Part shown: positions 1 to 43,219 of the stretch, piece by piece
Layout: the number at the start of each line of letters is the position of its first letter
Position numbering within the stretch: the first letter of the stretch is position 1
Assembly: GCA_029260855.1 (NCBI GenBank)
Contig: JAJDCK010000001.1
Location: 1,705-65,704, forward strand
Length of the DNA stretch: 64,000 nt
From: Candidatus Saccharimonadota bacterium
Lineage (GTDB): Bacteria; Patescibacteriota; Saccharimonadia; Saccharimonadales; OFTM59
Direction: 5' to 3'
Program-made: the position numbers and the translations under genes
Notes under the pieces: model-generated
Databases searched by the model: none
Told to the model about the DNA's origin: nothing
The model's input: the letters and a program-made list of their open reading frames with translations, nothing else

Positions 1-377
1 TCGTAGAAGAAAAAGATTTCGCTTTGGTGTGGCACTATCGAAATGTATCACCGGATCTAGCCTTTGTGCGCAAGGAAGAGCTAAAGATGGATCTTCAAGG
101 CCAACTTAGCGACAGCGAAATAGGTGTATTTGAAGGTAACAAGATTATTGAGATTAAACCAAAAAATATGCACAAAGGCGCGATTGTCGCTGAACTATTA
201 TCACAAGATAAGTGGGATTTCATAATGGCTATCGGAGACGATTATACCGACGAAGATATGTTCCGCGCCTTGCCAGAGCGGTCATATAGCATTCGTGTCG
301 GAGGAGGCGATACCGCGGCTCGGTATCAACTAGATAGTGTTGATGAGGTGATAAATTTGCTGGCAAATCTTAAGTAG
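1..377 (+). CDS. otsB: trehalose-phosphatase (HAD-IIB), C-terminal part; 5' end lies outside the window
   Basis: The frame is open from nt 3 (VEEKDFALVWHYRNV...). The HAD motif AIGDDYTDEDMF is typical of trehalose-6-phosphate phosphatases. Confidence 0.7.
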   Translation, partial: VEEKDFALVWHYRNVSPDLAFVRKEELKMDLQGQLSDSEIGVFEGNKIIEIKPKNMHKGAIVAELLSQDKWDFIMAIGDDYTDEDMFRALPERSYSIRVGGGDTAARYQLDSVDEVINLLANLK

Positions 378-4946: not shown

Positions 4947-7340
4947 TTATGCGCTTGTTCGCTTAGCAAACCCGAAGCCTGCTTTGTTCTTTGAAATACT
5001 GGTAGACTTATTAACCTTAACCGTGCTTTGTTCTGCCGTGTGCCGCGGCTTCATATGCAGGTAATATGTGGTCTTTAGGCCTTTTTCCCACGCCTTGGTA
5101 TAGATATCGACCATATCGTCTATTTCGCGTGTTTCTAGGTACATGTTTCGTGACATGGATTGGTCAATCCACTTTTGGGCTCGTGCAGCTACCTCTATAA
5201 AAGCATATGGCGATAACTGGAACGAGGTCTTGTACACATCCCGGACTTCCTGAGGTATAGCCTCTATCTCCTGAATATCACCTTGAGCACGCAAAATATC
5301 TTCGCGAACTTCTTCCCATATACCTAACTCTTTTAGGTCATTCACAAGGTTAGCGTTCACTTCTAGGAACTTGCCATTTAGAGTGGCTCTGCTGAAAATC
5401 TGTGAAAACTGCGGATCAATTCCTGGTGTTGTGCCAGCAACATGGGCAATATTGGCCGTTGGTGCTATGGCCATCAGCGTTGCGTTGCGCATGCCCTTCT
5501 TGACTTTTTTGCGCAGCTTAGCCCAGTCCATTCTTTGAGTACGGTTTACTTCAATTTTGACTTTTCGATCCTTAGCAGTTGTTTCAAGCGTATCAAACGG
5601 GACCACACCTTGACTCCAGCGTGAACCTTTGTAGTTCGGGTAGCTTCCACGCTCTTCTGCTAGGCTAGCGCTTTCATCAATCGCATGGTAGCTGACAAAC
5701 TCCGCAATGCGATCGCTAAGCTCATAGGCCTGCTCGCTGTCGTACGGGAAACCAAGTCGCTCAGTTACGTCCGTAAAACCCATCACGCCCAGGCCAACGG
5801 CTCTGTTCATTTTGTTGGAATGCATGGCTTCGGGAATTGGGGTGGTTGTTATGTCAATCAGGTTATCTAGCTGGCGAATAGCAGAACGAACGCTAGATTC
5901 TAGGCGCTTCCAGTCAAAATCTTTCTGTTCATCTAGTAGGTGAGCCGACAAGTTAAGGCTAGCCAGGTTACACACCGCAATATTGTTCTCATCTTGCGGT
6001 AAGCATATCTCAGTACAAAGATTAGACATGTGAATAGTACCCGTGTTGTTGTTGAGGGCGCGGTTGTTGGTGGTGTCCTTCCAGGTCAGCCACGGATGCG
6101 AGGTAGTTTGTAGACTCATCAGTATTGATCTGAACTGCTCGCGCGCCTTAATTCTCTTGAATACACGCATCTTTCCGGATTCGGCTAGCTTGACATATTC
6201 GTTGTAACGCTTAGAAAAGGCAGAGCCGTAAAGCTCGTTTAGATCACTGACTTCAGCTGGGTCAAACAAATACCAGTCAGCGTCATTTTTCACTCGTTTC
6301 ATAAACTCGTCCGAAATCCATACGGCAGTATTGGCCGTTCTGGCGCGACGATAGGGGTCGCCAGAGTTTTGTTTAAGGTCAAGATACTGTGGGAAGTCGA
6401 GGTGCCAGTTTTCTAAGTAGAAACAAAGCGCGCCTGCCTTTTTCCCTTTGCGGCTGACAGCTCGCAAAATCGAGTCAACGGTATGCATGTAGGGTATAGG
6501 GCCAGTAGACACCGTATTTGTGCTGCGTACTGGCGAACCCTCCGCGCGAAGCTTGGTCATACTAAGGCCTATACCGCCAGTACCCTTACTCATCCACATG
6601 ACGTCACGGTTGGCTTTTGCGATTGATTCAATATCGTCCTGGACCTCCATCAAGAAACAGTTAGCTAGTTGCGGGAAGTGCGTACCAGCGTTAACGTTAG
6701 TTGAGCCGCCAGGGATATAGTCCAAGCGAGACATGTGCTCATAAAAGTTCAGTGCTGCTTCTGTTGGGTTCTTTTCGTTGAAGCTCAACCCCATCGCAAC
6801 ACGCATACGCGAATACTGAGGCACCTCAATCGTCTCGCCGTCTAGTCTACGCAAAGAGTAGCGATTCCGGCTAGTAATAACCCCAAGGTACTTCATAAGA
6901 TTGTCTCTTGAAGGGTCAATAGCAAGCGCAAGCTTTTTAAGGTCAAAAAGTTTGTCGTTCATGCGCTTGTCAAGTAGCCCCTCACGGACGCCATCCTTGA
7001 TATATTGAATAAATTTGGTCCGGTGAAGTTCTACCAGTTCTTCGTCAGTGTTGAAGTCGCCCAAAACTTGCTTGTAAATAGTTTTGAGCAGCAAGCGTGC
7101 CGCTATCGTGTCATAGTCAGGATCATCTTTGACGTTCTGTAGCGCAGTGTTGATCGCCGCTTGGTCCAGCTGCGTAGTAGTAATACCGTCAAACAATGTC
7201 AGCGACAGCTCAGTCGCAATCTGAACCACCTTAGAAATTTGGTCTGGGAGACCCCTTGACGCGCGCTCCAGCGCACGATTGATTCTGTCGGCGTTGTACG
7301 GCTCTCTCTTACCGTCGACGTGCTGGACAGTGATATCCAT
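4947..7340 (-). CDS. nrdA: ribonucleotide reductase large subunit R1 (class I)
   Basis: N-terminal ATP-cone-like segment (VDGKREPYNADRINRALERA) and active-site SNLCTEI. 797 aa, with no Cys in the last ~40 residues. Confidence 0.92.
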   Translation of the reverse strand: MDITVQHVDGKREPYNADRINRALERASRGLPDQISKVVQIATELSLTLFDGITTTQLDQAAINTALQNVKDDPDYDTIAARLLLKTIYKQVLGDFNTDEELVELHRTKFIQYIKDGVREGLLDKRMNDKLFDLKKLALAIDPSRDNLMKYLGVITSRNRYSLRRLDGETIEVPQYSRMRVAMGLSFNEKNPTEAALNFYEHMSRLDYIPGGSTNVNAGTHFPQLANCFLMEVQDDIESIAKANRDVMWMSKGTGGIGLSMTKLRAEGSPVRSTNTVSTGPIPYMHTVDSILRAVSRKGKKAGALCFYLENWHLDFPQYLDLKQNSGDPYRRARTANTAVWISDEFMKRVKNDADWYLFDPAEVSDLNELYGSAFSKRYNEYVKLAESGKMRVFKRIKAREQFRSILMSLQTTSHPWLTWKDTTNNRALNNNTGTIHMSNLCTEICLPQDENNIAVCNLASLNLSAHLLDEQKDFDWKRLESSVRSAIRQLDNLIDITTTPIPEAMHSNKMNRAVGLGVMGFTDVTERLGFPYDSEQAYELSDRIAEFVSYHAIDESASLAEERGSYPNYKGSRWSQGVVPFDTLETTAKDRKVKIEVNRTQRMDWAKLRKKVKKGMRNATLMAIAPTANIAHVAGTTPGIDPQFSQIFSRATLNGKFLEVNANLVNDLKELGIWEEVREDILRAQGDIQEIEAIPQEVRDVYKTSFQLSPYAFIEVAARAQKWIDQSMSRNMYLETREIDDMVDIYTKAWEKGLKTTYYLHMKPRHTAEQSTVKVNKSTSISKNKAGFGFAKRTSA

Positions 7341-7589
7341 TGTACCCTCCTTATTTTTGTAAGTTTTAATTTTGCCTCAAGCTCGCCCGTTCAGGGTTAG
7401 CTAAAAAGTAAAAGCTCCCACTTTCACATCCAGCTTACACGTGCTGCCCAAAAACGTAAAGACCAAATTTTGGGGCAACTATACCGAACGCAATGGCGTC
7501 TGGCGTCGCAGTTACAGTTTAAAAACTACTGTTTTTAAACATTTTCAGGGGAAAACCTGAAATTCCGGACGCTGGGTGTAGTGCTTAGT

Positions 7590-32310: not shown

Positions 32311-34941
32311 TTAAGTTTTTGCTGCTTTAGCTCGCTGCTTAATATCGGCAACCCAGTCCTTTAGGATTTGTAAGTGGTCTTTCAGATTGTCTGGAGTAGG
32401 TGTCTCTGTGCTACCAGCTTCGGCAGCTGGGTCATGCATATACTTTGCGCAGGTATGCATATTATCTGCGATGAGCTGCTTATCGGCATCGTCAATGAAA
32501 ATATCGTTAATGTTTCCCGGTTTCACATCTCTGCGATAGCGGATTACAATCCCGTTCAATAAAACTTCCTCTATCGCTCTTTCCCAGGTTCTCCTTAAAT
32601 CCTTATAAAAACTTTCTGTCTCGGTCTTGTAGTCTTCCTCATTATTTTCAAACTTGGCTTTAATGGGGTTTACTCGCTTCTCAAGAAAGTCAATTCGCTG
32701 TCCAGTCTTCATAGTGTCAAAGGGTAGGCTTTCACGCACGACACCAGGGCTTGAAACCTTTTCAATTGACCTAGCTGTATACCGTCCGCCAAGGTCGTTC
32801 ATAGCTCTCTCTAGCTCACTTGCGAATAGAACATTATGTGTAAATACAATCACCTGCCGAGTAAGCGCCTCTTGTGCTATGCGTTTTGCTATTCGCTCAA
32901 CATTGTGATGGTCCAATGAAGTTACAGGGTCATCAAAAACAATCGCTGATGTTGATGGGGTTATTGATAATTCTGCAAAAAATCCAGCAAGCGCAACACC
33001 TCTTTGTTCGCCCTCACTCATAATCTTCTCAATGTTGTCGCCCTTAAGGTCACCTGACTTGCCCGAGAGAATAATGGCACTAGAGGGAACGCCTTTTGTA
33101 GTTCTTCCTTTTACTAACTTCGCAGTAATTTTACCTAGGAATATTGCGTCAAGCTCGTCATTAAAAGTTTTGGCAAGTTTATCAATGATTAAACGCTCAC
33201 TTATATCACCAATTTTAGTACTTACTGCAAAAGTTTTGCTTGAATTTATTGCGTCCTGTAATACCTTCTTATCCTGATGAATATTAATATTTTCAAGGAT
33301 TTGTTTTTCGTAAGTGCTTAATGCCTTTTTTGATTTTAGATTCTTCAGCTTATCTAGGTCGGTCTGTAGCTGTCGCCTGAATTCATCGTCATCAAGAGGG
33401 GTCTTTATCTCTTCCCCTAATGCATTTACACATTCACTAAACCTAGTTATTTCTGCCTCAAGTTTTTTCAAGTCAGCGTACTTATCTATCTCATTAGAGC
33501 CATTGAAGATAGCCAGGTAATCTTGGTGCGCGTCTCTCGCCGTCTTAATGCTAGCCGAAAGTTTGGCGATGTCCTTATAGTCATCTCCGCTAAAATTTAC
33601 CAGCAGATTATCGTATGTGTCATCTAGGAGGTTGGCTCTGATAAACCCATCTCTAAGGGATTTGAAGACTGTATCTGCATTAGTAGCCAAGGACTGGCTC
33701 TTGTCATTAACAAAGCTAACAAAGTCACTGAACTTATCTGTGCTAGCCGATGAGATTGGCTGCTGACAAAGTACACACTTTGCCTGCTCGCCCGTGTGCG
33801 GAAAGGTATGCTCAGGATACGCAGACTTAGACGAGAATTCTTGTGCTGCTTCCCATAGGTTTTTCCATAAATCATTGCCCGTCCCGGTAATAAAGTTTTC
33901 ATTTTCAAACTTCTTTTTGCCAGCTTCGTCTGCCAACTTGCGCTTACTAACTGCGTCATCACGGGCGGTTATTATCTTATCTACATTTTCTGGGTCAAGC
34001 GCCTCCTGTAGCGTGTTGAGTTGAGTAAGTAAACCATTAAGCCTGGTGTATAGCTTGGTCCTCTCATCTCTAATTTTTTGTGGAGACTTCGTCTGCCTTA
34101 AGACAGTATCTTTTTCTAAAGCTATGATTTCTTGCTGTTCATCTAAAGTAAGGACCTTTTGAGCCTTAAAATCGTTTAGTGCCGTTTTGCCTGACAAGCC
34201 GCCGATTAATTCATGTGCCTTTGTACCGCTAAACTCCACAAAACTGGTTTCAAGGTTGTTAAGTGTGTCCGTCTTTGCTTGCAGGTCATCTTTCAGCTTT
34301 TGCGCAATAGCTTCAATAGCAATAGAGAGGCTGTCTAGAATATCCATACCAGCGGGCATGAATACCAAATCGTTCTCAGAGATTAAATAGTTGTGTCCGC
34401 TTTTACTATCAAAAACATGGACTGATTTTAACTGGGGGTCAGCTTCGCTACTGTTATCTAGCTGAAAGCTATGACTGCTTCCGTCAACTTCATAAAGGAT
34501 ATTGGCAATGCACTCACGCTCATGCTCACTATGCACATTGCCGCGTAGTTGCTCGCTATGACGACAATTACAACTATTTTTAAGAATTCTAGTGTATCCA
34601 GATTTACCAGAGGCATTATCCCCGTAAATCATGTTCAGCCCCACCTTTTCTAGAGGGAGCGGTGAACCATCGGTAATTGCATTTATATTTTGCGTTGCTT
34701 TAACTTCTGAAATTCTAACCCCGCCAGCAGAAGTTGCTCCGGTGTACTCATACTCCTCTAGCGGACTGCCTACTTTTTCGGCATATGCTTTTGGGTCAGT
34801 AGCTGCTTCAATTGCTTGAGCTGCGTAGAACCTGTATCGTTTATCATCAAGTTCGCCGCCAGAAAGAAGTTCAGCAACCAAAACTTGCTGCCACACGGGC
34901 TGACTTAAAGCCCACTTAACTATCTCGTCAATAATCTCCAT
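32311..34941 (-). CDS. RloC/PrrC-like ABC-type ATPase with a coiled-coil/CxxC zinc-hook insert (AAA_13-type); candidate anticodon nuclease
   Basis: Walker A GDNASGKS (107-114). About 420 aa of heptad-rich sequence with CVLC (389-392) near its midpoint. Signature SEGEQ (642), Walker B AIVFDD (666-671) and THN (701-703). The C-terminal ~170 aa contains LRRTWERAIEE and CAKYMHD. Confidence 0.6.
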   Translation of the reverse strand: MEIIDEIVKWALSQPVWQQVLVAELLSGGELDDKRYRFYAAQAIEAATDPKAYAEKVGSPLEEYEYTGATSAGGVRISEVKATQNINAITDGSPLPLEKVGLNMIYGDNASGKSGYTRILKNSCNCRHSEQLRGNVHSEHERECIANILYEVDGSSHSFQLDNSSEADPQLKSVHVFDSKSGHNYLISENDLVFMPAGMDILDSLSIAIEAIAQKLKDDLQAKTDTLNNLETSFVEFSGTKAHELIGGLSGKTALNDFKAQKVLTLDEQQEIIALEKDTVLRQTKSPQKIRDERTKLYTRLNGLLTQLNTLQEALDPENVDKIITARDDAVSKRKLADEAGKKKFENENFITGTGNDLWKNLWEAAQEFSSKSAYPEHTFPHTGEQAKCVLCQQPISSASTDKFSDFVSFVNDKSQSLATNADTVFKSLRDGFIRANLLDDTYDNLLVNFSGDDYKDIAKLSASIKTARDAHQDYLAIFNGSNEIDKYADLKKLEAEITRFSECVNALGEEIKTPLDDDEFRRQLQTDLDKLKNLKSKKALSTYEKQILENINIHQDKKVLQDAINSSKTFAVSTKIGDISERLIIDKLAKTFNDELDAIFLGKITAKLVKGRTTKGVPSSAIILSGKSGDLKGDNIEKIMSEGEQRGVALAGFFAELSITPSTSAIVFDDPVTSLDHHNVERIAKRIAQEALTRQVIVFTHNVLFASELERAMNDLGGRYTARSIEKVSSPGVVRESLPFDTMKTGQRIDFLEKRVNPIKAKFENNEEDYKTETESFYKDLRRTWERAIEEVLLNGIVIRYRRDVKPGNINDIFIDDADKQLIADNMHTCAKYMHDPAAEAGSTETPTPDNLKDHLQILKDWVADIKQRAKAAKT

Positions 34942-35538: not shown

Positions 35539-37239
35539 ATGGGTATGGCAGAACTTACCAGTACCCAGAAACTACTAGAGCTACTTCAAGCCGGTCTACC
35601 AAAAGCCCCAGGGGATGTGGATACAGGTACTATTAACTACGCCCTGTACGCTAGGAAATCTACTACCAGCGAAGATAGACAAGCCTCATCTATTGAAGAC
35701 CAGGTAACAGAGTGTATGGAAAAGGTTGTTGTACCAAACGACCTAAATATTGTTAAGGTCTATGAAGAGAGCTTCTCGGCAAAGATTGCTGATACGCGCG
35801 ATGAGTTTAAAGCGCTCATTAACGAGATAGAGAACGGTCATATTGATGGTCTCATTGCTTGGCATCCTGACCGTCTAGCGCGCAATATGAAAGAGGCGGG
35901 GGCGATTATTGACCTTGTAGACAGAGGACTAATTAAAGACCTCCGCTTTCCTACCTTCACCTTTGAAAACACTCCCGCCGGTAAAATGCTGCTCGGCATT
36001 ACATTTGTTATGGCTAAGCAGTATTCGGAACACCTTGCGGAAAGCGTTGACCGTGGGAACAAGCGAGCCATAGAGGACGGCGAGTTTATTGGTAAATTCA
36101 AGCACGGCTACACGGTTGATATTAACCGTACATTCCAGCCCGACCCTCGCAACTTCACGAAGGTTAAACATATGTTTACTATGGCTGTTGAGGGCAAGTC
36201 TCAAAAGCAAATCCGCGAGTGGATAAACGAGCAAGGCTACACGGTCCAAAAGCGCCCAGGTGGCGAGTATGAGCCTCACAAATGGGATAAGGACGATGTC
36301 TCAAAGCTCATCCGAGACCCGCACTACGCAGGTGTCCATAAATGGGGCAAGAACTTCACTGACCTTATGGAGGCTTACGATTTTGAGCCAATGATTTCAG
36401 TAGATGACTTCTTAAAGATAAACAAAGTTGATAGTCTCAACTCTGCAAAGATACTTGCCATTAGTAGACCACGAGGCGGCAACATTCGGGCAGACCTACT
36501 GAGGGGCAAGGTTTATTGTGGCGCGTGTAATAAGACACTCACCTCAATGTTGATTGATAAAAGGGATAAAGAAACCAAGGAAATTATTCAGTCACGCTAC
36601 TACTACAAATGCGAGACTGAGGGTTGCGCCGTAGAGGGTAGTTCTGCCCGTGCTGGATTAGTTGTCAGCGCCGCACAGCAGTTCTTTCAGGATTATTTAT
36701 TCATTACCAAGGGCAACTACGCCCACTTCGTTAAAGAGGCTGAAAAAGAGGCAAAGCGTAAGTCCGCAGAGTTTGACAGCATTATTGCTCGGTCAAAAAT
36801 CACTATCGCCAACAAGGAAAAATCATACGAGCGCACTAAAGATCTCATCCTCAAAAACCCTGACCTCAAAGAGCATTATGACCTAGATAAGTACAGCAAA
36901 GAGATTGAGAAAATAAGGAAGGACTTCGTTAAAGCTACGAAACAGCGCGACAACATCAAGAGCGCCATACCAACATTTGAAGAATACCTTAAACTTTTAG
37001 AAACCACCCCTGTTATCCTGGGCAAGATACGGGATATGAAGGTAATGGATGTGCTGCTAAGGATTTTCTTCTCTAATTTCACCATAATTCCAGGCGAAGA
37101 CGGCTTCCGTAAGGGGTCAACAGTGACCATAAAACTAAACGAACCCTGGGAAGGGTTCGTTGTTGCCAATGATTTCGTTCGTGGTGCGGGTAAAGGGACT
37201 CTAACCCTTGGCCTCGTCCTTGGCAAGGACGCGCTCTAA
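35539..37239 (+). CDS. large serine recombinase (integrase)
   Basis: N-terminal resolvase domain (YALYARKSTTSEDRQASSIEDQ), recombinase domain, Cys-rich zinc ribbon (CGACNK...YYYKCETEGC) and a coiled-coil C-terminus. The last 58 nt are antisense to tRNA-Gly. Confidence 0.88.
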   Translation: MGMAELTSTQKLLELLQAGLPKAPGDVDTGTINYALYARKSTTSEDRQASSIEDQVTECMEKVVVPNDLNIVKVYEESFSAKIADTRDEFKALINEIENGHIDGLIAWHPDRLARNMKEAGAIIDLVDRGLIKDLRFPTFTFENTPAGKMLLGITFVMAKQYSEHLAESVDRGNKRAIEDGEFIGKFKHGYTVDINRTFQPDPRNFTKVKHMFTMAVEGKSQKQIREWINEQGYTVQKRPGGEYEPHKWDKDDVSKLIRDPHYAGVHKWGKNFTDLMEAYDFEPMISVDDFLKINKVDSLNSAKILAISRPRGGNIRADLLRGKVYCGACNKTLTSMLIDKRDKETKEIIQSRYYYKCETEGCAVEGSSARAGLVVSAAQQFFQDYLFITKGNYAHFVKEAEKEAKRKSAEFDSIIARSKITIANKEKSYERTKDLILKNPDLKEHYDLDKYSKEIEKIRKDFVKATKQRDNIKSAIPTFEEYLKLLETTPVILGKIRDMKVMDVLLRIFFSNFTIIPGEDGFRKGSTVTIKLNEPWEGFVVANDFVRGAGKGTLTLGLVLGKDAL

Positions 37240-37258
37240 ACAACTGAGCTACACCCGC
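37182..37258 (-). tRNA. tRNA-Gly(GCC)
   Basis: Manual fold: acceptor GCGGGTG/TACCCGC, D-arm GCTC-AGTTGTTTA-GAGC, anticodon arm CGTCC-TTGCCAA-GGACG, T-arm AAGGG-TTAGAGT-CCCTT, encoded CCA. Confidence 0.85.
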
Positions 37259-37312
37259 ATGTTTGAACTGACATATTCTGTCAGAGTTCTGTGAGTTTTT
37301 AAAGAGCACGTT

Positions 37313-37330
37313 CTTGGCCTGGCAAGGACG
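37313..37330 (-). pseudogene. tRNA-Gly anticodon/variable-region remnant with a 7-nt deletion
   Basis: cttggcc|tggcaaggacg equals 37207-37213 plus 37221-37231 of the intact gene, lacking tcgtcct. Confidence 0.5.
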
Positions 37331-37358
37331 GTCACGCTAGCGCAACCACATTCTGCGG

Positions 37359-37507
37359 CCCCGACACTGACTTACTTGAAACAAGTTTCAAATCAGTCAG
37401 ATGTCCTTGCAATGAGCCACCAGCTCATCTCACCCGAAGCCTCCTTACTTTAAACAAGTTTAAAATCTGAAAGGCTTCCTTGCGAACTGCCACCGGGCAG
37501 TTCTCAC
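37359..37507 (-). repeat. two tandem ~75-nt structured modules (A 37434-37507, B 37359-37433)
   Basis: Shared frame GTGAGA-hairpin1-TYGCAAGGA-hairpin2(CTTG loop)-TCGG(GG), with covarying stems. See findings. Confidence 0.75.
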
Positions 37508-37533
37508 TCTAAACAACTGAGCTACACCCGCAT
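37507..37533 (-). pseudogene. truncated 5' copy of tRNA-Gly (positions 1-25 plus 2 upstream nt)
   Basis: 27-nt perfect direct repeat of 37234-37260. Confidence 0.8.
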
Positions 37534-37716
37534 CTTTGCGAAGCAAAGTTTGGCGCCCCCTCCCAAACAGCGGACTAAAGTCCTCTTTCGCTCAGTCATG
37601 CTCAGAGTAAACTTTTGCGCGCGACTTCGCTTCACCGACTGGTCGCTACGCGACCTTCCAGTTCGAGCCTGTGCGGCCATATAAATATTACAGTCTGATG
37701 ACTGAAATATTTATAA

Positions 37717-37792
37717 TGGTGGCTCCTCCCAGACTCGAACTGGGGACACAAGGCTCTTCAAGCCTCTGCTCTACCAACTGAGCTAAAGAGCC
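37717..37792 (-). tRNA. tRNA-Phe(GAA)
   Basis: Acceptor GGCTCTT/AGGAGCC, D-arm GCTC-AGTTGGTA-GAGC, anticodon loop TTGAAGA, encoded CCA. Confidence 0.88.
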
Positions 37793-37816
37793 ACGTCGGA
37801 ACCGATGGCCAGCTTA

Positions 37817-37838
37817 CACAAAAGCCATTGTTGGCTTT
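37817..37838 (-). terminator. intrinsic terminator downstream of the SPFH-MazG operon
   Basis: On the minus strand: AAAGCCA-ACAA-TGGCTTT followed by TTGTGT. Confidence 0.45.
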
Positions 37839-37945
37839 CGTTCCATCTTCTGGTCGATTCCTCCTCACAATTTTCCATACAGTCGCCTAATGGCTCCATG
37901 GTTTGAAAAATTGGCTAGGACAAGGGTTATTCTACTTCAAAGAGG

Positions 37946-38284
37946 CTATTTCTTCAAGAAGTGTTTCTTTTTGAAGCGGCCCTTGTCCCGACTTTCTAGT
38001 TTCGCTATTGAGTTTTCTAGCGCTGCATCCAGATCTATGCCTTCACTGTTAGCAACACAAATAATGCTGTATATAATATCGGCCAGCTCGTCAGCCAGGT
38101 CTTCGTGCTCTTCGTCTGCCTTTTTGGGTTTGTCGCCATATTTGTGATTAAGGATCCGCGAGACCTCACCAACCTCTTCTATGATTCGGGCCAGCTGACT
38201 TAACTGATGCCAATAAGGTTTTTCGTAGGCCTGCAATTCATCGTCAACTTGTTTCTGGTAACCTTTTAAGTTCATATGGCTCAT
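37946..38284 (-). CDS. MazG-like nucleotide pyrophosphohydrolase
   Basis: EEVGEVSRIL ... DELADIIYSIICVAN, characteristic of small MazG-family proteins. Confidence 0.75.
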   Translation of the reverse strand: MSHMNLKGYQKQVDDELQAYEKPYWHQLSQLARIIEEVGEVSRILNHKYGDKPKKADEEHEDLADELADIIYSIICVANSEGIDLDAALENSIAKLESRDKGRFKKKHFLKK

Positions 38285-38285
38285 T

Positions 38286-39029
38286 TTATTGCTTGTTTTG
38301 GCGTAGAACGTCTATGAGCTCCATCGGGAACGCAAAGAATGTCTTCTGGGAGGGTTCCGCAGAAATACGCTCTAAGGTGTTCAACGTACGGAGGTTAATT
38401 GCACCTGGCGTACCACTAAGCAACTTTGCTGCATCCGCCAGCGTCTGGGCCACCATTCGTTCAGCGTCGGCGTTAATAACGTTTGCACGTCGCTCACGCT
38501 CAGCCTCAGCCTGCTTTGCCATAGCCCGTTTCATATCCTGTGGCAGTTCAATGTTTTGAAGTTTGACGTTTTCAACATCTATACCCCATTTGTCGGTCTC
38601 AGCGTCTACAATTTTTTTAATCTGCATGCTGATTTCTTCTCGCTTTCCTAGAAGTTCGTCTAGCTCAACATTACCCACTACGTCGCGAAGCGCAGCTTGT
38701 GCGAACTGTGAAGTAGCATAGGTGTAGTTAGTCGTCTCAAGAACCGCCCTAGCTGGGTCAATTACCCTGAAGTAAACAACCGCGTCTACGCCAATAGTGA
38801 CGTTGTCTTTGGTAATAACTTCTTGCTTAGGCACATCAACCGGCGTGGAGCGTACATCAACTTTTCTTATGATCTGTATAACGGGGATAATGATATTAAA
38901 GCCGGGGCTACGTATACCCGTAAACTTACCCAGAGTCAGGACAATGCCGCGCTCGTATTGATTAATAATACGGATCCCGTTGATCAGTATTATGGTTATA
39001 AAAATTAGTGCGGTAGAGATTATAAACAT
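38286..39029 (-). CDS. SPFH/band-7 (stomatin/HflC-like) membrane protein
   Basis: N-terminal TM helix, then an SPFH core (YERGIVLTLGKF ... ALRDVVG) and a coiled C-terminus. Confidence 0.88.
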   Translation of the reverse strand: MFIISTALIFITIILINGIRIINQYERGIVLTLGKFTGIRSPGFNIIIPVIQIIRKVDVRSTPVDVPKQEVITKDNVTIGVDAVVYFRVIDPARAVLETTNYTYATSQFAQAALRDVVGNVELDELLGKREEISMQIKKIVDAETDKWGIDVENVKLQNIELPQDMKRAMAKQAEAERERRANVINADAERMVAQTLADAAKLLSGTPGAINLRTLNTLERISAEPSQKTFFAFPMELIDVLRQNKQ

Positions 39030-39057
39030 AGCACCCTAAGACCTCCGTTATGTTCTT

Positions 39058-39086
39058 ATTGTAGGTTTATTCTGTTAAGTTGCCAA
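39058..39086 (-). promoter_or_regulatory. putative promoter of the SPFH-MazG operon
   Basis: On the minus strand: TTGGCA, 17 nt, TACAAT, about 28 nt upstream of the start codon. Confidence 0.45.
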
Positions 39087-39196
39087 AAGATTTTATTTTT
39101 ATCCATGCCATGTCTTCTTCTACCACTACTCAGCACGCCACGTTCTTTAGTTTTTCATATCAATACCTTGTGGGCTGCCGCCTATAAGTATTGGTA

Positions 39197-39220
39197 ATAA
39201 AAAAGCCTGCTCCTTGCAGG
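39197..39220 (-). terminator. intrinsic terminator after the tRNA-Val 3'-end duplicate
   Basis: On the minus strand: CCTGC-AAGGA-GCAGG followed by CTTTTTTATT. Confidence 0.6.
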
Positions 39221-39228
39221 TTATTTAT

Positions 39229-39247
39229 TTGGTGGGTGATGAGGGAC
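39229..39247 (-). repeat. 19-nt duplicate of the tRNA-Val 3' end (T-stem 3' strand, acceptor, CCA)
   Basis: ttggtgggtgatgagggac is identical to 39411-39429. Confidence 0.8.
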
Positions 39248-39378
39248 AGCAGACTCCGTCCTTTATCCGCTGCGGCATGCTCGGAGCAAACTCCTGCGCG
39301 TGTCCTCACTACAACGACCCCGACCTTTGCCAGCTAAAGCTGTCAAGTCGGAGAACCGCGTCTGATTACATAGCCAAT

Positions 39379-39402
39379 ATAAAAACCCCGTGTAATACGG
39401 GG
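39379..39402 (-). terminator. intrinsic terminator directly after tRNA-Val
   Basis: On the minus strand: CCCCG-TATTACA-CGGGG followed by TTTTTAT. Confidence 0.6.
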
Positions 39403-39411
39403 CCTTTATAT

Positions 39412-39488
39412 TGGTGGGTGATGAGGGACTCGAACCCCCGACCCTCTCGGTGTAAACGAGATGCTCTAGCCAACTGAGCTAATCACCC
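39412..39488 (-). tRNA. tRNA-Val(UAC)
   Basis: Acceptor GGGTGAT/ATCACCC, anticodon arm TCTCG-TTTACAC-CGAGA, T-loop TTCGAGT, encoded CCA. Confidence 0.9.
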
Positions 39489-39516
39489 TTGATTGTCAAT
39501 ATAATAGCACATCTTT

Positions 39517-39603
39517 TGGTGCGGATGAGAGGACTTGAACCTCCATGAGCCGAAGCCCACTAGCCCCTGAAGCTAGCGCGTCTACCAATTCCGCCACATC
39601 CGC
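39517..39603 (-). tRNA. tRNA-Leu(CAG)
   Basis: Acceptor GCGGATG/CATCCGC, anticodon arm CTAGC-TTCAGGG-GCTAG, 15-nt variable arm, encoded CCA. Confidence 0.9.
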
Positions 39604-39659
39604 ATACTGTAATCAATGGTTCAAGATGTAATTATAAAGGACTTGGTCACGTCCCGCGA

Positions 39660-39732
39660 CCCCGAAACTTCGCTATTGGCAACAAGTTGCCATCGGAAGA
39701 TTTCCTTGCGAAGTGCCACCGGCACTTCTCAC
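39660..39732 (-). repeat. structured module C (third copy of the 37359-37507 family)
   Basis: GTGAGA-AGTGC CGGTG GCACT-TCGCAAGGA-...TGGCAA CTTG TTGCCA...-TCGGGG. Confidence 0.75.
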
Positions 39733-39795
39733 CTCCATGAGCCGAAGCCCACTAGCCCCTGAAGCTAGCGCGTCTACCAATTCCGCCACATCCGC
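39733..39795 (-). pseudogene. truncated 5' copy of tRNA-Leu(CAG) (positions 1-63/65)
   Basis: Part of a 66-nt perfect direct repeat (39731-39796 equals 39539-39604). It lacks the T-loop and the 3' acceptor strand. Confidence 0.85.
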
Positions 39796-39851
39796 ATTTT
39801 AGAGCAGCTGAGGATTGAACTTTACAATCTTACGAGGTATAAGCACAAAAC

Positions 39852-40139
39852 TCAAGCGTGGGGTGGAACTTTAGTATGCTTCTTCGAAAGTCGTCTACGC
39901 TCGTGAATGGACGTAATACCACGCAGGGCTACGATGACCCACACAACATCAAGCACGACGCTGATGTGTGCACTGCGGTTTAGGTTGTAGATCATCAACA
40001 ACCCAGCACCGAGCAAGTTATCTAGCTCATACCAGAACGATGTGTTTGTCCACCGTCCTATACTGGTCCTATAAAAACCAAACAATATCAGAGCTGCACC
40101 AGTAGTACCTATAAATGTAAGCAAAGCATCGGACATCAA
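39852..40139 (-). CDS. small three-TM membrane protein
   Basis: 95 aa with three hydrophobic helices and a basic C-terminus. Confidence 0.5.
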   Translation of the reverse strand: MMSDALLTFIGTTGAALILFGFYRTSIGRWTNTSFWYELDNLLGAGLLMIYNLNRSAHISVVLDVVWVIVALRGITSIHERRRLSKKHTKVPPHA

Positions 40140-42457: not shown

Positions 42458-42544
42458 TGGTGCGCGAGAGAGGACTTGAACCTCCACGTCCTTGCGGACA
42501 CTAGAACCTCAATCTAGCCTGTCTACCAATTCCAGCACTCGCGC
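42458..42544 (-). tRNA. tRNA-Leu(GAG)
   Basis: Acceptor GCGCGAG/CTCGCGC, anticodon arm CTAGA-TTGAGGT-TCTAG, long variable arm, encoded CCA. Confidence 0.9.
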
Positions 42545-43219
42545 CAACAATGCCTTACTAGCATACGGATCTGTTCTGATGAAATCAATAAATTTAATCC
42601 GTTTTCTGCTAAGTGATAATGCATTTATATCCGCATACATGAATGCAAAAAGTTTTTGAGAATCCGTTTTAGCATAAGTTAGAGTTAAACCGCCTCTATT
42701 TGGCTTAATCTTACCCGGGCTAGTATTTACAAGCTCTGTATTCATGGTTTGAATCCATTGTAAAAATTTTGAGCTCGCATTTATGAACCCCGTGTAATAC
42801 ATAAAACTATTTGACCAACGCTTATCCCAATATCCATAGACCGTGCCGTCACCATCAAAATAACCTCTTAAAAAACCAGCGTAGTATTCGCTAGGTAGGA
42901 CAATCTTTCCCATCGTCTTGCTCTTGGCAGTTGTAAGGCCTGACAGTAGCAAAAAATCATAAAATGCTACATTACTAAACTGGAGGTGATAAGCCATGTT
43001 TCCGTAAGGGCTTTGCTTCGTCGAAACTTTGACATTCATACACATTATCTGTTGCACGATATCTATTATTTCTTTGTCTTTTGATGTCACGTTAATATGC
43101 CTACCGTTATTAATCAGGCAACCGTCTGCCGCAATAAGCCCCACGATATAGGCGAGTTCGGAGTTCCATGTATAAAACTTTTTATATTTATAACGGCTCA
43201 TGTATAAATAGTATACCAT
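42509..43219 (-). CDS. free-standing LAGLIDADG homing endonuclease
   Basis: Two LAGLIDADG motifs (LAYIVGLIAADGCL and FLRGYFDGDGTV). The last 12 codons (ARVLELVDRLD*) are encoded by nt 1-36 of tRNA-Leu(GAG). Confidence 0.8.
   Translation of the reverse strand: MVYYLYMSRYKYKKFYTWNSELAYIVGLIAADGCLINNGRHINVTSKDKEIIDIVQQIMCMNVKVSTKQSPYGNMAYHLQFSNVAFYDFLLLSGLTTAKSKTMGKIVLPSEYYAGFLRGYFDGDGTVYGYWDKRWSNSFMYYTGFINASSKFLQWIQTMNTELVNTSPGKIKPNRGGLTLTYAKTDSQKLFAFMYADINALSLSRKRIKFIDFIRTDPYASKALLARVLELVDRLD

Follow-up and report, generated by a model that had tools for sequence, protein, structure and literature searches.

An 86-nt structured module inside a truncated tRNA-Leu(CAG) copy of a Saccharimonadota genome: a candidate miniature mobile element of tRNA genes

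Introduction

Islands and prophages that target tRNA genes are the closest described counterpart of the locus considered here: their attL and attR sites form a direct repeat of part of a tRNA around the insert, and one gene remains intact. In integrase-type elements the repeated portion is usually the tRNA 3' part, resulting from a crossover in the anticodon loop or T-loop. Large serine recombinases act without long repeats, and the exchange of their 2-bp core entails no loss. Saccharibacteria, with their tiny genomes, have single-copy tRNA genes. The tRNAs of Patescibacteria carry group I introns at position 35/36 (PMC13011429).

We analyzed a stretch of 64,000 nt (the window) from contig JAJDCK010000001.1 of the Candidatus Saccharimonadota bacterium assembly GCA_029260855.1. 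Its tRNA-Leu(CAG) locus resembles a tRNA-targeting island in its partial-tRNA repeat next to an intact gene and differs in that only 126 nt, with neither a gene nor a recombinase, lie between the repeats, and in that the repeat covers tRNA positions 1–65.

Results and Discussion

Organization of the tRNA-Leu(CAG) Locus

ARAGORN placed all eight tRNA genes of the window on the minus strand; the sole intact tRNA-Leu(CAG) (Rfam, 54.5 bits) is preceded, in the direction of transcription, by a truncated copy of itself at 39797..39732 (Table 1). The repeat search of the window gave a 67-nt direct repeat with 100% identity (39539–39605 = 39731–39797), which confirms the perfect duplication reported in the preliminary description and lengthens it by one base from 66 nt. 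From the position and strand of the intact gene it follows that the repeat consists of two upstream nucleotides and tRNA positions 1–65; the tRNA portion had been given correctly, and the single upstream nucleotide has to be replaced by two. Both the repeat search and ARAGORN reproduced the geometry originally described, with the 5' part duplicated and the intact gene downstream. The break after the 5' strand of the T-stem was also found as stated: the truncated copy ends in GGAGG-T, that is, the T-stem 5' strand and T54, and passes straight into module C (39731..39646).

Read along the minus strand, the order is the upstream flank, AT plus tRNA positions 1–65, the 86-nt element, CAAGTCCT, T-TATAAT-TACAT, CTTGAACC, ATTGATTACAGT, and AT plus the whole tRNA. 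The spacer of 126 nt starts with the 86-nt module, whose first T belongs also to the repeat, and is completed by the 8 nt of CAAGTCCT, the TATAAT box, CTTGAACC (39625..39618), and 14 further nucleotides. After the module, the tRNA resumes for 8 nt with one T-loop nucleotide absent; the distance from the module end to the start of the intact tRNA-Leu is 43 nt. The hexamer of the TATAAT promoter proposed earlier for the intact gene is present but is only −10-like, and a sigma-70 promoter scan around it returned 0 sites, with no −35/−10 pair. With the module removed, the truncated copy was not recognized as a tRNA by ARAGORN because the 3' acceptor strand is missing.

Table 1. Coordinates of the Leu locus and of the other features of the window discussed in the text.
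Feature	Position	Strand	Evidence or remark
Large serine recombinase ORF, 566 aa (Resolvase + Recombinase + Zn-ribbon)	35539..37239	+	
Element upstream of tRNA-Gly (37182–37258)	37259..37538	−	Repeat search, covariance model R1
Element downstream of tRNA-Phe (37717–37792)	37539..37716	−	
Element downstream of tRNA-Val (39412–39488)	39229..39411	−	Identical in independent assembly L084
Intact tRNA-Leu(CAG); downstream repeat copy = 39539–39605	39517..39603	−	ARAGORN, Rfam, repeat search
CTTGAACC: degenerate inverted T-loop copy, antisense of tRNA raw positions 63–70	39618..39625	−	
TATAAT, −10-like hexamer, 27 nt upstream of the intact gene	39631..39636	−	Without −35 partner
CAAGTCCT: tRNA raw positions 67–74 (T-loop 3' part and start of T-stem 3' strand); raw 66 absent	39638..39645	−	
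Module C, 86 nt, three hairpins	39646..39731	−	R1, 103.8 bits, E = 5e-23, model positions 1–86; fold and covariation
Upstream repeat copy: 2 nt + tRNA-Leu(CAG) 1–65, ends at T54	39731..39797	−	Upstream flank = tRNA 1–64, score 128

Module C as a Structured Family

When one genome per species was scanned with a degenerate pattern, 83 loci were obtained, and about 70 of these contain module C. Most are labelled Saccharibacteria, and the few with labels of other taxa or of "bacterium" show Saccharibacteria-like GC where checked. The first 69 copies were gathered by a pattern fixing TGAGA, GGTGGC, and YGCAAGGA, so that the invariance of these motifs is partly a matter of ascertainment; the covariance model built here (R1; 86 positions, 33 pairs) later recovered copies that deviate in the fixed motifs, such as L043 1711–1798. 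R1 gave 3 matches within the window, and across 70 loci that come from at least 58 Saccharibacteria assemblies it gave 83, in line with the initial impression that module C is truly a repeated module. The copy at Leu matches the model over its full length and lies in sense inside the partial tRNA copy, beside the intact cognate gene.

The alignment of 62 distinct copies gives a fold of three hairpins: P1, formed by TGAGA..YGCA with a GGU loop, the long hairpin P2/P3, and P4, a 6-bp hairpin with a conserved G.U pair. Standard pairs make up 97.7% of the cells in this 62-sequence alignment. Double-sided changes are present in 21 of the 33 pairs, with 346 double-change cells against 97 in shuffles, and controls slid by 1–3 columns are about ten-fold lower (~0.05 vs 0.475). 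Of the 62 sequences, 57 keep the G.U pair of P4, and another pair switches between G-C and G-U. Wobble pairs of this kind are possible only on the tRNA-sense strand, which means that the selected fold is that of sense RNA or sense single-stranded DNA. Module C is conserved as a folded sense-strand nucleic acid.

A search of positions 36800–40000 against Rfam 15, at the gathering score and at E values up to 10, gave only tRNA matches and noise, with none for module C or for the second module, B, described below. No description of the element was found in the searchable literature, where the group I introns of Patescibacteria tRNAs come nearest. Module C apparently represents a widespread structured RNA-like family that has so far been undescribed.

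Arrangement and Entry Sites

Typing of the flanks with ARAGORN showed that nearly all copies of module C have the orientation of the tRNA, lie inside a partial tRNA copy, and adjoin the intact cognate gene. There are two arrangements. In class 1 (about 20 copies, including both module C loci of the window), the module is upstream and the tRNA 5' part is duplicated; the order is tRNA 5' part, module, 6–11 nt of further tRNA, an AT-rich stretch, and the intact tRNA, and the 5' part reaches raw position 17, 25, 37/38, or 50–54/62–64. Duplication of the 5' part, which the preliminary description had treated as an exception, is found in about one third of the copies of the family. In class 2 (about 40 copies), the module is downstream and the 3' part is duplicated, in the order intact tRNA, terminator, short stretch, module, and tRNA 3' part through CCA. 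Here the 10–13 nt before the module are the variable loop and the T-stem 5' strand, and the 21–22 nt after it are the remaining tRNA. Both classes can flank one gene together, as in L016, L019, and L076. A terminator of the type TCCTCCGTCG-hairpin-CTATGGAGGATTT stands just after CCA in L003, L055, L067, L040, and L018, the tRNA genes or fragments of which differ.

Entry takes place in the D-loop, at the hinge (position 26), in the anticodon loop, or in the T-loop, each unpaired in the cloverleaf, with entry positions 17, 25, 37/38, and 54. G is the last base of the left flank at all 29 scorable junctions. The tRNA nucleotides replaced by the module, mostly GT or TT, number exactly 2 in 24 of these junctions and 3–4 in the other 5. 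The rule for module C is entry behind a G at an unpaired tRNA position, with two nucleotides replaced. Nested insertions use its own linker, CGGG|GU (window 37433–37506, L022, L035, and L076), and in the few copies that lie in non-tRNA hairpins the left flank is likewise RGGG.

Outside any recognizable tRNA, module C was observed at L051 4222–4307, L038 4744–4829, and L033 627–712, with GGG as the left flank in all three. The L051 copy is within a short hairpin adjoining 5S/23S rRNA genes. It was considered whether tmRNA is the host of the L038 copy, which was not supported.

Inverted Target Copy and Duplication Boundaries

The interrupted copy and the intact gene are separated by a stretch that contains the target site, uninterrupted, in inverted orientation. 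This inverted copy follows the module by 8 nt in class 1; in class 2 it precedes the sense piece and may span the whole tRNA 3' half. In the window the inverted copy has 26 nt at Gly and is reduced to a degenerate 8 nt at Leu. The inverted copy contains no module and must therefore have been templated by uninterrupted tRNA sequence.

When the inverted and interrupted copies were compared, the aligned positions comprised 584 Watson-Crick, 46 G.U, 41 A.C, and 118 other combinations. A functional RNA hairpin between the inverted copy and the interrupted tRNA piece was rejected, as there is no excess of G.U over A.C (46 vs 41); with no such excess of wobble pairs, the inverted copy behaves as a neutral, decaying by-product. 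L006 has two module C copies tail-to-tail, 17–102 (+) and 112–197 (−), 9 nt apart (CGAGTCCTA); the pair is a perfect fold-back with the module in the inverted arm, while the usual inverted copies are module-less. The same Saccharibacteria contig has a group I intron at 7202–7409 (−; RF00028, 74.5 bits) that is unrelated to module C.

The identity between partial and intact copies ends 0–3 nt from position +1 of the tRNA in 14 of 16 class 1 loci, and of 23 class 2 loci 19 have its end 0–2 nt from CCA. The duplicated segment spans the distance from the entry site to the tRNA 5' or 3' end and no further.

Relatedness of the Copies and Turnover among Relatives

In 36 of 39 informative comparisons, the nearest relative of a module at another locus is at a tRNA for a different amino acid, a count that rests on a highly conserved sequence of 86 nt and might be distorted by gene conversion among the copies. 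Grouping by similarity mixes class 1 with class 2 copies. The Leu copy of the window is 95.4% identical to the tRNA-Pro copy in L075/L083, and the three copies of the window differ strongly among themselves. As judged by these similarities, near-identical modules occupy different tRNA genes and both arrangements, so that the tRNA parts appear to be derived from the target and not carried by the element. Of the earlier proposal of a very small element with its own tRNA 5' replacement, the small size holds, while the origin assigned to the tRNA part probably does not.

In the syntenic relative L043, Gly has a single module against two in the window, and Val has module C in place of the module B of the window. 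Its syntenic Leu site is a plain tRNA-Leu(GAG) without a module, where the window has the Leu(CAG) pair. In L179, a tRNA-Leu(CAG) identical at 84 of 87 positions follows a similar ORF end and has a TATAAT box, with no module in the 91 nt of sequence available upstream. The comparison with empty sites called for by the preliminary description thus yielded these two module-less sites, but no strain-level pair of filled and empty versions of one locus was found, and look-ups of exact proteins for strain variants returned only the same strain. A metagenome scan with the 28-mer of the Leu T-arm and acceptor gave mostly unrelated high-GC bacteria and 0 matches with module C, L179 being the only informative one. 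Relatedness, boundaries, and the turnover seen in L043 and L179 together suggest that module C moves from one tRNA gene to another and gains flanks from the local tRNA at each insertion.

The gene between the small membrane ORF and tRNA-Val is tRNA-Leu(GAG) in L043 (1429–1515) and tRNA-Leu(CAG) in the window (39517–39603), which has its own tRNA-Leu(GAG) 3 kb from the Leu(CAG) site. The tRNA genes themselves seem to have been exchanged or moved between the two.

Sister Elements, Module B, and Full-Length Interrupted tRNAs

Module B has about 68 nt (...GAGCAUG..AGCG..GGAC-loop-GUCC-GCUGU) and ends in GCUGU after a short hairpin. It is located in the T-loop, after TTCG, in displaced 3' fragments of the tRNA-Val and tRNA-Phe of the window, and occurs elsewhere at L043 3903–3970 and L024 6840–6904. 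The Val element is made up of a terminator, an inverted tRNA remnant, GGTCGGGG-TCG, module B (39246–39313), and a 19-nt duplicate of the tRNA-Val 3' end (39229–39247); the Phe element comprises an inverted remnant, module B (37567–37635), and a diverged tRNA-Phe 3' end. The Gly element consists of tRNA-Gly positions 1–25 (37514–37538), a nested pair of module C copies (37433–37506 and 37345–37432), sense positions 28–38 (37320–37330), and the inverted copy (37294–37319). With module C at Leu and Gly and module B at Val and Phe, four of the eight tRNA genes of the window carry such elements.

Full-length interrupted genes were observed as well. L010 2900–3150 is a full-length tRNA-Pro(GGG)-like sequence with module C at 37/38 and a 27-nt T-loop hairpin ending in GCGCTGT, with no intact tRNA within 8 kb; its contig is labelled Burkholderiaceae but has 44% GC and is therefore probably misbinned. 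L057 2700–2900 (−) is a promoter-equipped full-length tRNA-Gly(GCC) with module C at 54/55, in which one T-loop nucleotide is absent and the anticodon stem has an A.C mismatch. No intact tRNA-Gly copy was found within 8 kb of it, and L057 is the key case for whether interrupted copies can be sole copies.

Origin of the Duplication

We favor, with middling confidence, the reading of the Leu duplication as the footprint of a miniature mobile element, the sole constant part of which is the 86-nt structured module C. Its core, a conserved strand-specific structured module of 86 nt that appears to be mobile among tRNA genes and to reside in partial decoys beside working genes, is well supported by the sequence comparisons. 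In the course of events that we propose, module C would move between tRNA genes, and the tRNA parts around it would be copied from the local target at insertion, in a copying step with a strand switch. Insertions would survive only when an intact copy of the gene is made or kept, which would explain the partial decoy beside a working gene. At Leu, the native upstream region would now feed the truncated copy and the module, with the AT-rich TATAAT stretch serving the intact gene. The insertion enzyme may be a large serine recombinase acting in trans; alternatively, a route at the level of RNA or single-stranded DNA may be used. The entry sites, the 2-nt loss, the fold-back copy, and the boundaries at tRNA ends suggest copying on a single-stranded, tRNA-shaped substrate, which could be RNA that is then reverse transcribed or single-stranded DNA with strand switching. 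Against mobility of this kind, the geometry (8 nt, then a fold-back) fits no known transposition chemistry, no transposase, integrase, or reverse transcriptase was tied to the mini-elements, and neither an excised nor a circular form was observed. Against copying of the tRNA parts from the target, the same junction ends four islands, two of them with a recombinase, which fits an element carrying its own tRNA segment.

These islands bear on an alternative that we consider rather unlikely, namely that the Leu locus is a cargo-less derivative or scar of a recombinase-driven island in whose attachment region module C splits a tRNA-like segment. A crossover with the chromosomal tRNA gene left of the module would duplicate the 5' part and one right of it the 3' part, and the mini-elements of about 190 bp would be islands minus their genes, possibly mobilized in trans by a large serine recombinase. 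At four loci (L013, L075, L003, and L022), a module C junction closes islands of 2.6–4.3 kb. In L013, 4.3 kb lie between tRNA-Gln and the junction of module C with a tRNA 3' fragment; within this island, a large serine recombinase of 569 aa is convergent with the tRNA and overlaps it, and three further ORFs include a HEPN-like one. The L075 island, at tRNA-Pro, is organized likewise and again ends in module C plus a tRNA 3' fragment; it forms a tandem 4.1-kb unit in which an attP-like junction is exposed. L003 (2.6 kb, S24 peptidase) and L022 (4.2 kb, Schlafen AlbA_2) share the junction and contain cargo but no recombinase. The recombinase of the window runs antisense through the 3' part of tRNA-Gly with its last 58 nt, is 32% identical to that of L013 over 335 residues, and is arranged likewise in its overlap with the tRNA. 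A period of about 190 bp common to both arrangements, and duplications that stop at the tRNA ends, as expected of an att segment under selection, also agree with an island origin.

On the other side, a recombinase was found within 8 kb at only 3 of about 70 loci, and the one nearest to the Leu element is 2.3 kb away at another tRNA. Near-identical modules at tRNAs of different amino acids and in both arrangements are hard to reconcile with an element that needs a matching tRNA segment, and neither entry in the D-loop and at position 26 nor the 2-nt loss is typical of the products of serine or tyrosine integrases. No second tRNA-Gly fragment or attR that would mark the far end of an island of the window recombinase was found in the window. 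The search of IMG/VR gave no module C; its single pattern match was a chance match in DNA with 58% GC, and a phage origin was rejected. As for the earlier suggestion of a scar left by a larger element, the locus is unlike a classical integrase scar in having tRNA sequence on both sides of the module, whereas the islands with the same junction elsewhere speak for it.

Next to the window recombinase, the ORF at 32311–34941 encodes an AAA_13/SMC-like ATPase. A LAGLIDADG_3 ORF (236 aa, 42509–43219, −) ends 36 nt inside the 5' part of tRNA-Leu(GAG) (42458–42544) and may be another mobile gene abutting a tRNA.

It is improbable, in our estimate, that module C is a functional RNA retained by the host, such as a processing signal, an insulator or self-cleaving RNA, a stable small RNA, or a decoy with tRNA fragments. 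Such a role would account for the strong conservation of structure with its sense-strand G.U pairs, for the co-orientation with the highly transcribed tRNA genes in every case, and for the unrelated module B filling the same T-loop niche. It would not be expected from the differences in copy number and position between close relatives, the many tRNAs without a module, the neutral inverted copy nearby, or the nested and palindromic copies. A host RNA function and mobility of module C are compatible with each other and not mutually exclusive.

A bolder proposal, to which we also give little credence, is that modules C and B are a new mobile RNA, ribozyme-like and joining itself to tRNA loops after G, with the chimeras being copied back into DNA beside the parent gene. 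This would explain the sense-only orientation and the entry only at unpaired positions, the duplications that start or stop exactly at mature tRNA ends, the fold-backs of the template-switch type, and the easy retargeting between tRNAs.

It is very improbable that module C is a genuine tRNA intron, which a group I ribozyme or protein enzymes would remove to leave a second working tRNA-Leu. The module does lie in tRNA loops, the canonical 37/38 site included, L062 minus its module is a normal tRNA-Glu, the full-length interrupted genes of L057 and L010 have no intact copy within 8 kb, and tRNA introns exist in Patescibacteria (PMC13011429). Most copies are, however, partial, and the Leu copy is without the tRNA 3' end, so that removal of the module yields no tRNA; simple excision cannot restore the loop, since 2 nt are lost at the junction; no Rfam intron model matched, and 86 nt is far below the size of any group I intron. 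A spliceable intron at the Leu locus was rejected on account of the incomplete exons and missing junction nucleotides.

An assembly artefact, which the exact 67-nt repeat with copies only 192 nt apart in an apparently metagenome-derived genome could suggest and which had been named as what would undo the initial observation, is the least credible explanation: the upstream flank was found in two independent Logan assemblies (SRR15505512 and SRR15505513), both of which break exactly at the repeat, ending 27–30 nt inside it as expected of a true repeat in a k-mer graph, a third independent assembly (L084) is identical across the adjoining tRNA-Val element, and the same architecture occurs in at least 58 other assemblies.

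Overall, half of the tRNA genes of the window carry such elements despite the tiny genome with single-copy tRNAs. Under the miniature-element reading, the element could colonize essential tRNA genes and leave them working, since it would reside in a partial copy that acts as a decoy. The annotation of tRNAs and islands in genomes of the candidate phyla radiation is confounded by tRNA copies that are interrupted or partial. The islands with a serine recombinase and defence-like genes (HEPN-like, Schlafen AlbA_2, and S24 peptidase) bear on gene exchange in these episymbionts. If module C were indeed catalytic or mobile as RNA, it would represent a mobile RNA of a new class and might serve as a tool.

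Comparison with Known Systems

With tRNA-targeting islands the module C family shares the stacking of events at one tRNA, and a few related loci close a kilobase island with a recombinase. It differs by entry in the D-loop and at position 26, by the loss of two target nucleotides, and by the inverted target copy, and what stays constant in it is a folded, RNA-like module found again at many different tRNAs. Elements of large serine recombinases (phiC31, Bxb1, and A118-type integrases; SCCmec ccr) are similar in that a recombinase abuts a tRNA in the window, L013, and L075; the Leu element itself has no recombinase, and only co-location is seen in these three.

Introns of tRNAs, both group I and the archaeal bulge-helix-bulge introns at non-canonical positions, are likewise structured sense inserts in tRNA loops, sometimes at 37/38. 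Module C differs by its 86-nt size, the lack of a match to an intron model, the usually incomplete exons, and the 2 missing nucleotides. The group I core model RF00028, which does detect the true group I intron in L006, has no match in the window. Archaeal-type introns have complete exons, and at Leu the exons are incomplete and 2 nt are missing. With an intact gene beside the Leu copy, splicing is not needed, nor is it possible at this locus.

Folded single-strand sites, such as integron attC and the attP of CTX phage, are, like module C, in part conserved in structure rather than in sequence, and strand-specific. The integron crossover is G|TT, and the left junction of module C likewise follows G. 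Module C differs by being without an integron integrase, Xer context, or cassette array. The mechanisms of integron attC, retrons, IS200/IS605, IS91/Helitron, and IS607, as well as hammerhead, hairpin, pistol, and hatchet ribozymes and the T-box, find no support in the junctions, with neither a fit to the junction rule nor a model match for any of them.

MITEs, Rickettsia palindromic elements, and REP/BIME are, like module C, short structured noncoding elements that spread in multiple copies in related small genomes. Compared with MITEs and other IS-derived elements, the ends of module C are not inverted repeats, and the target loses 2 nt and has no duplication of fixed length. From MITEs and palindromic repeats module C is further distinguished by its strict tRNA-sense orientation, its targeting of tRNA loops, and the covariation of a single-strand fold.
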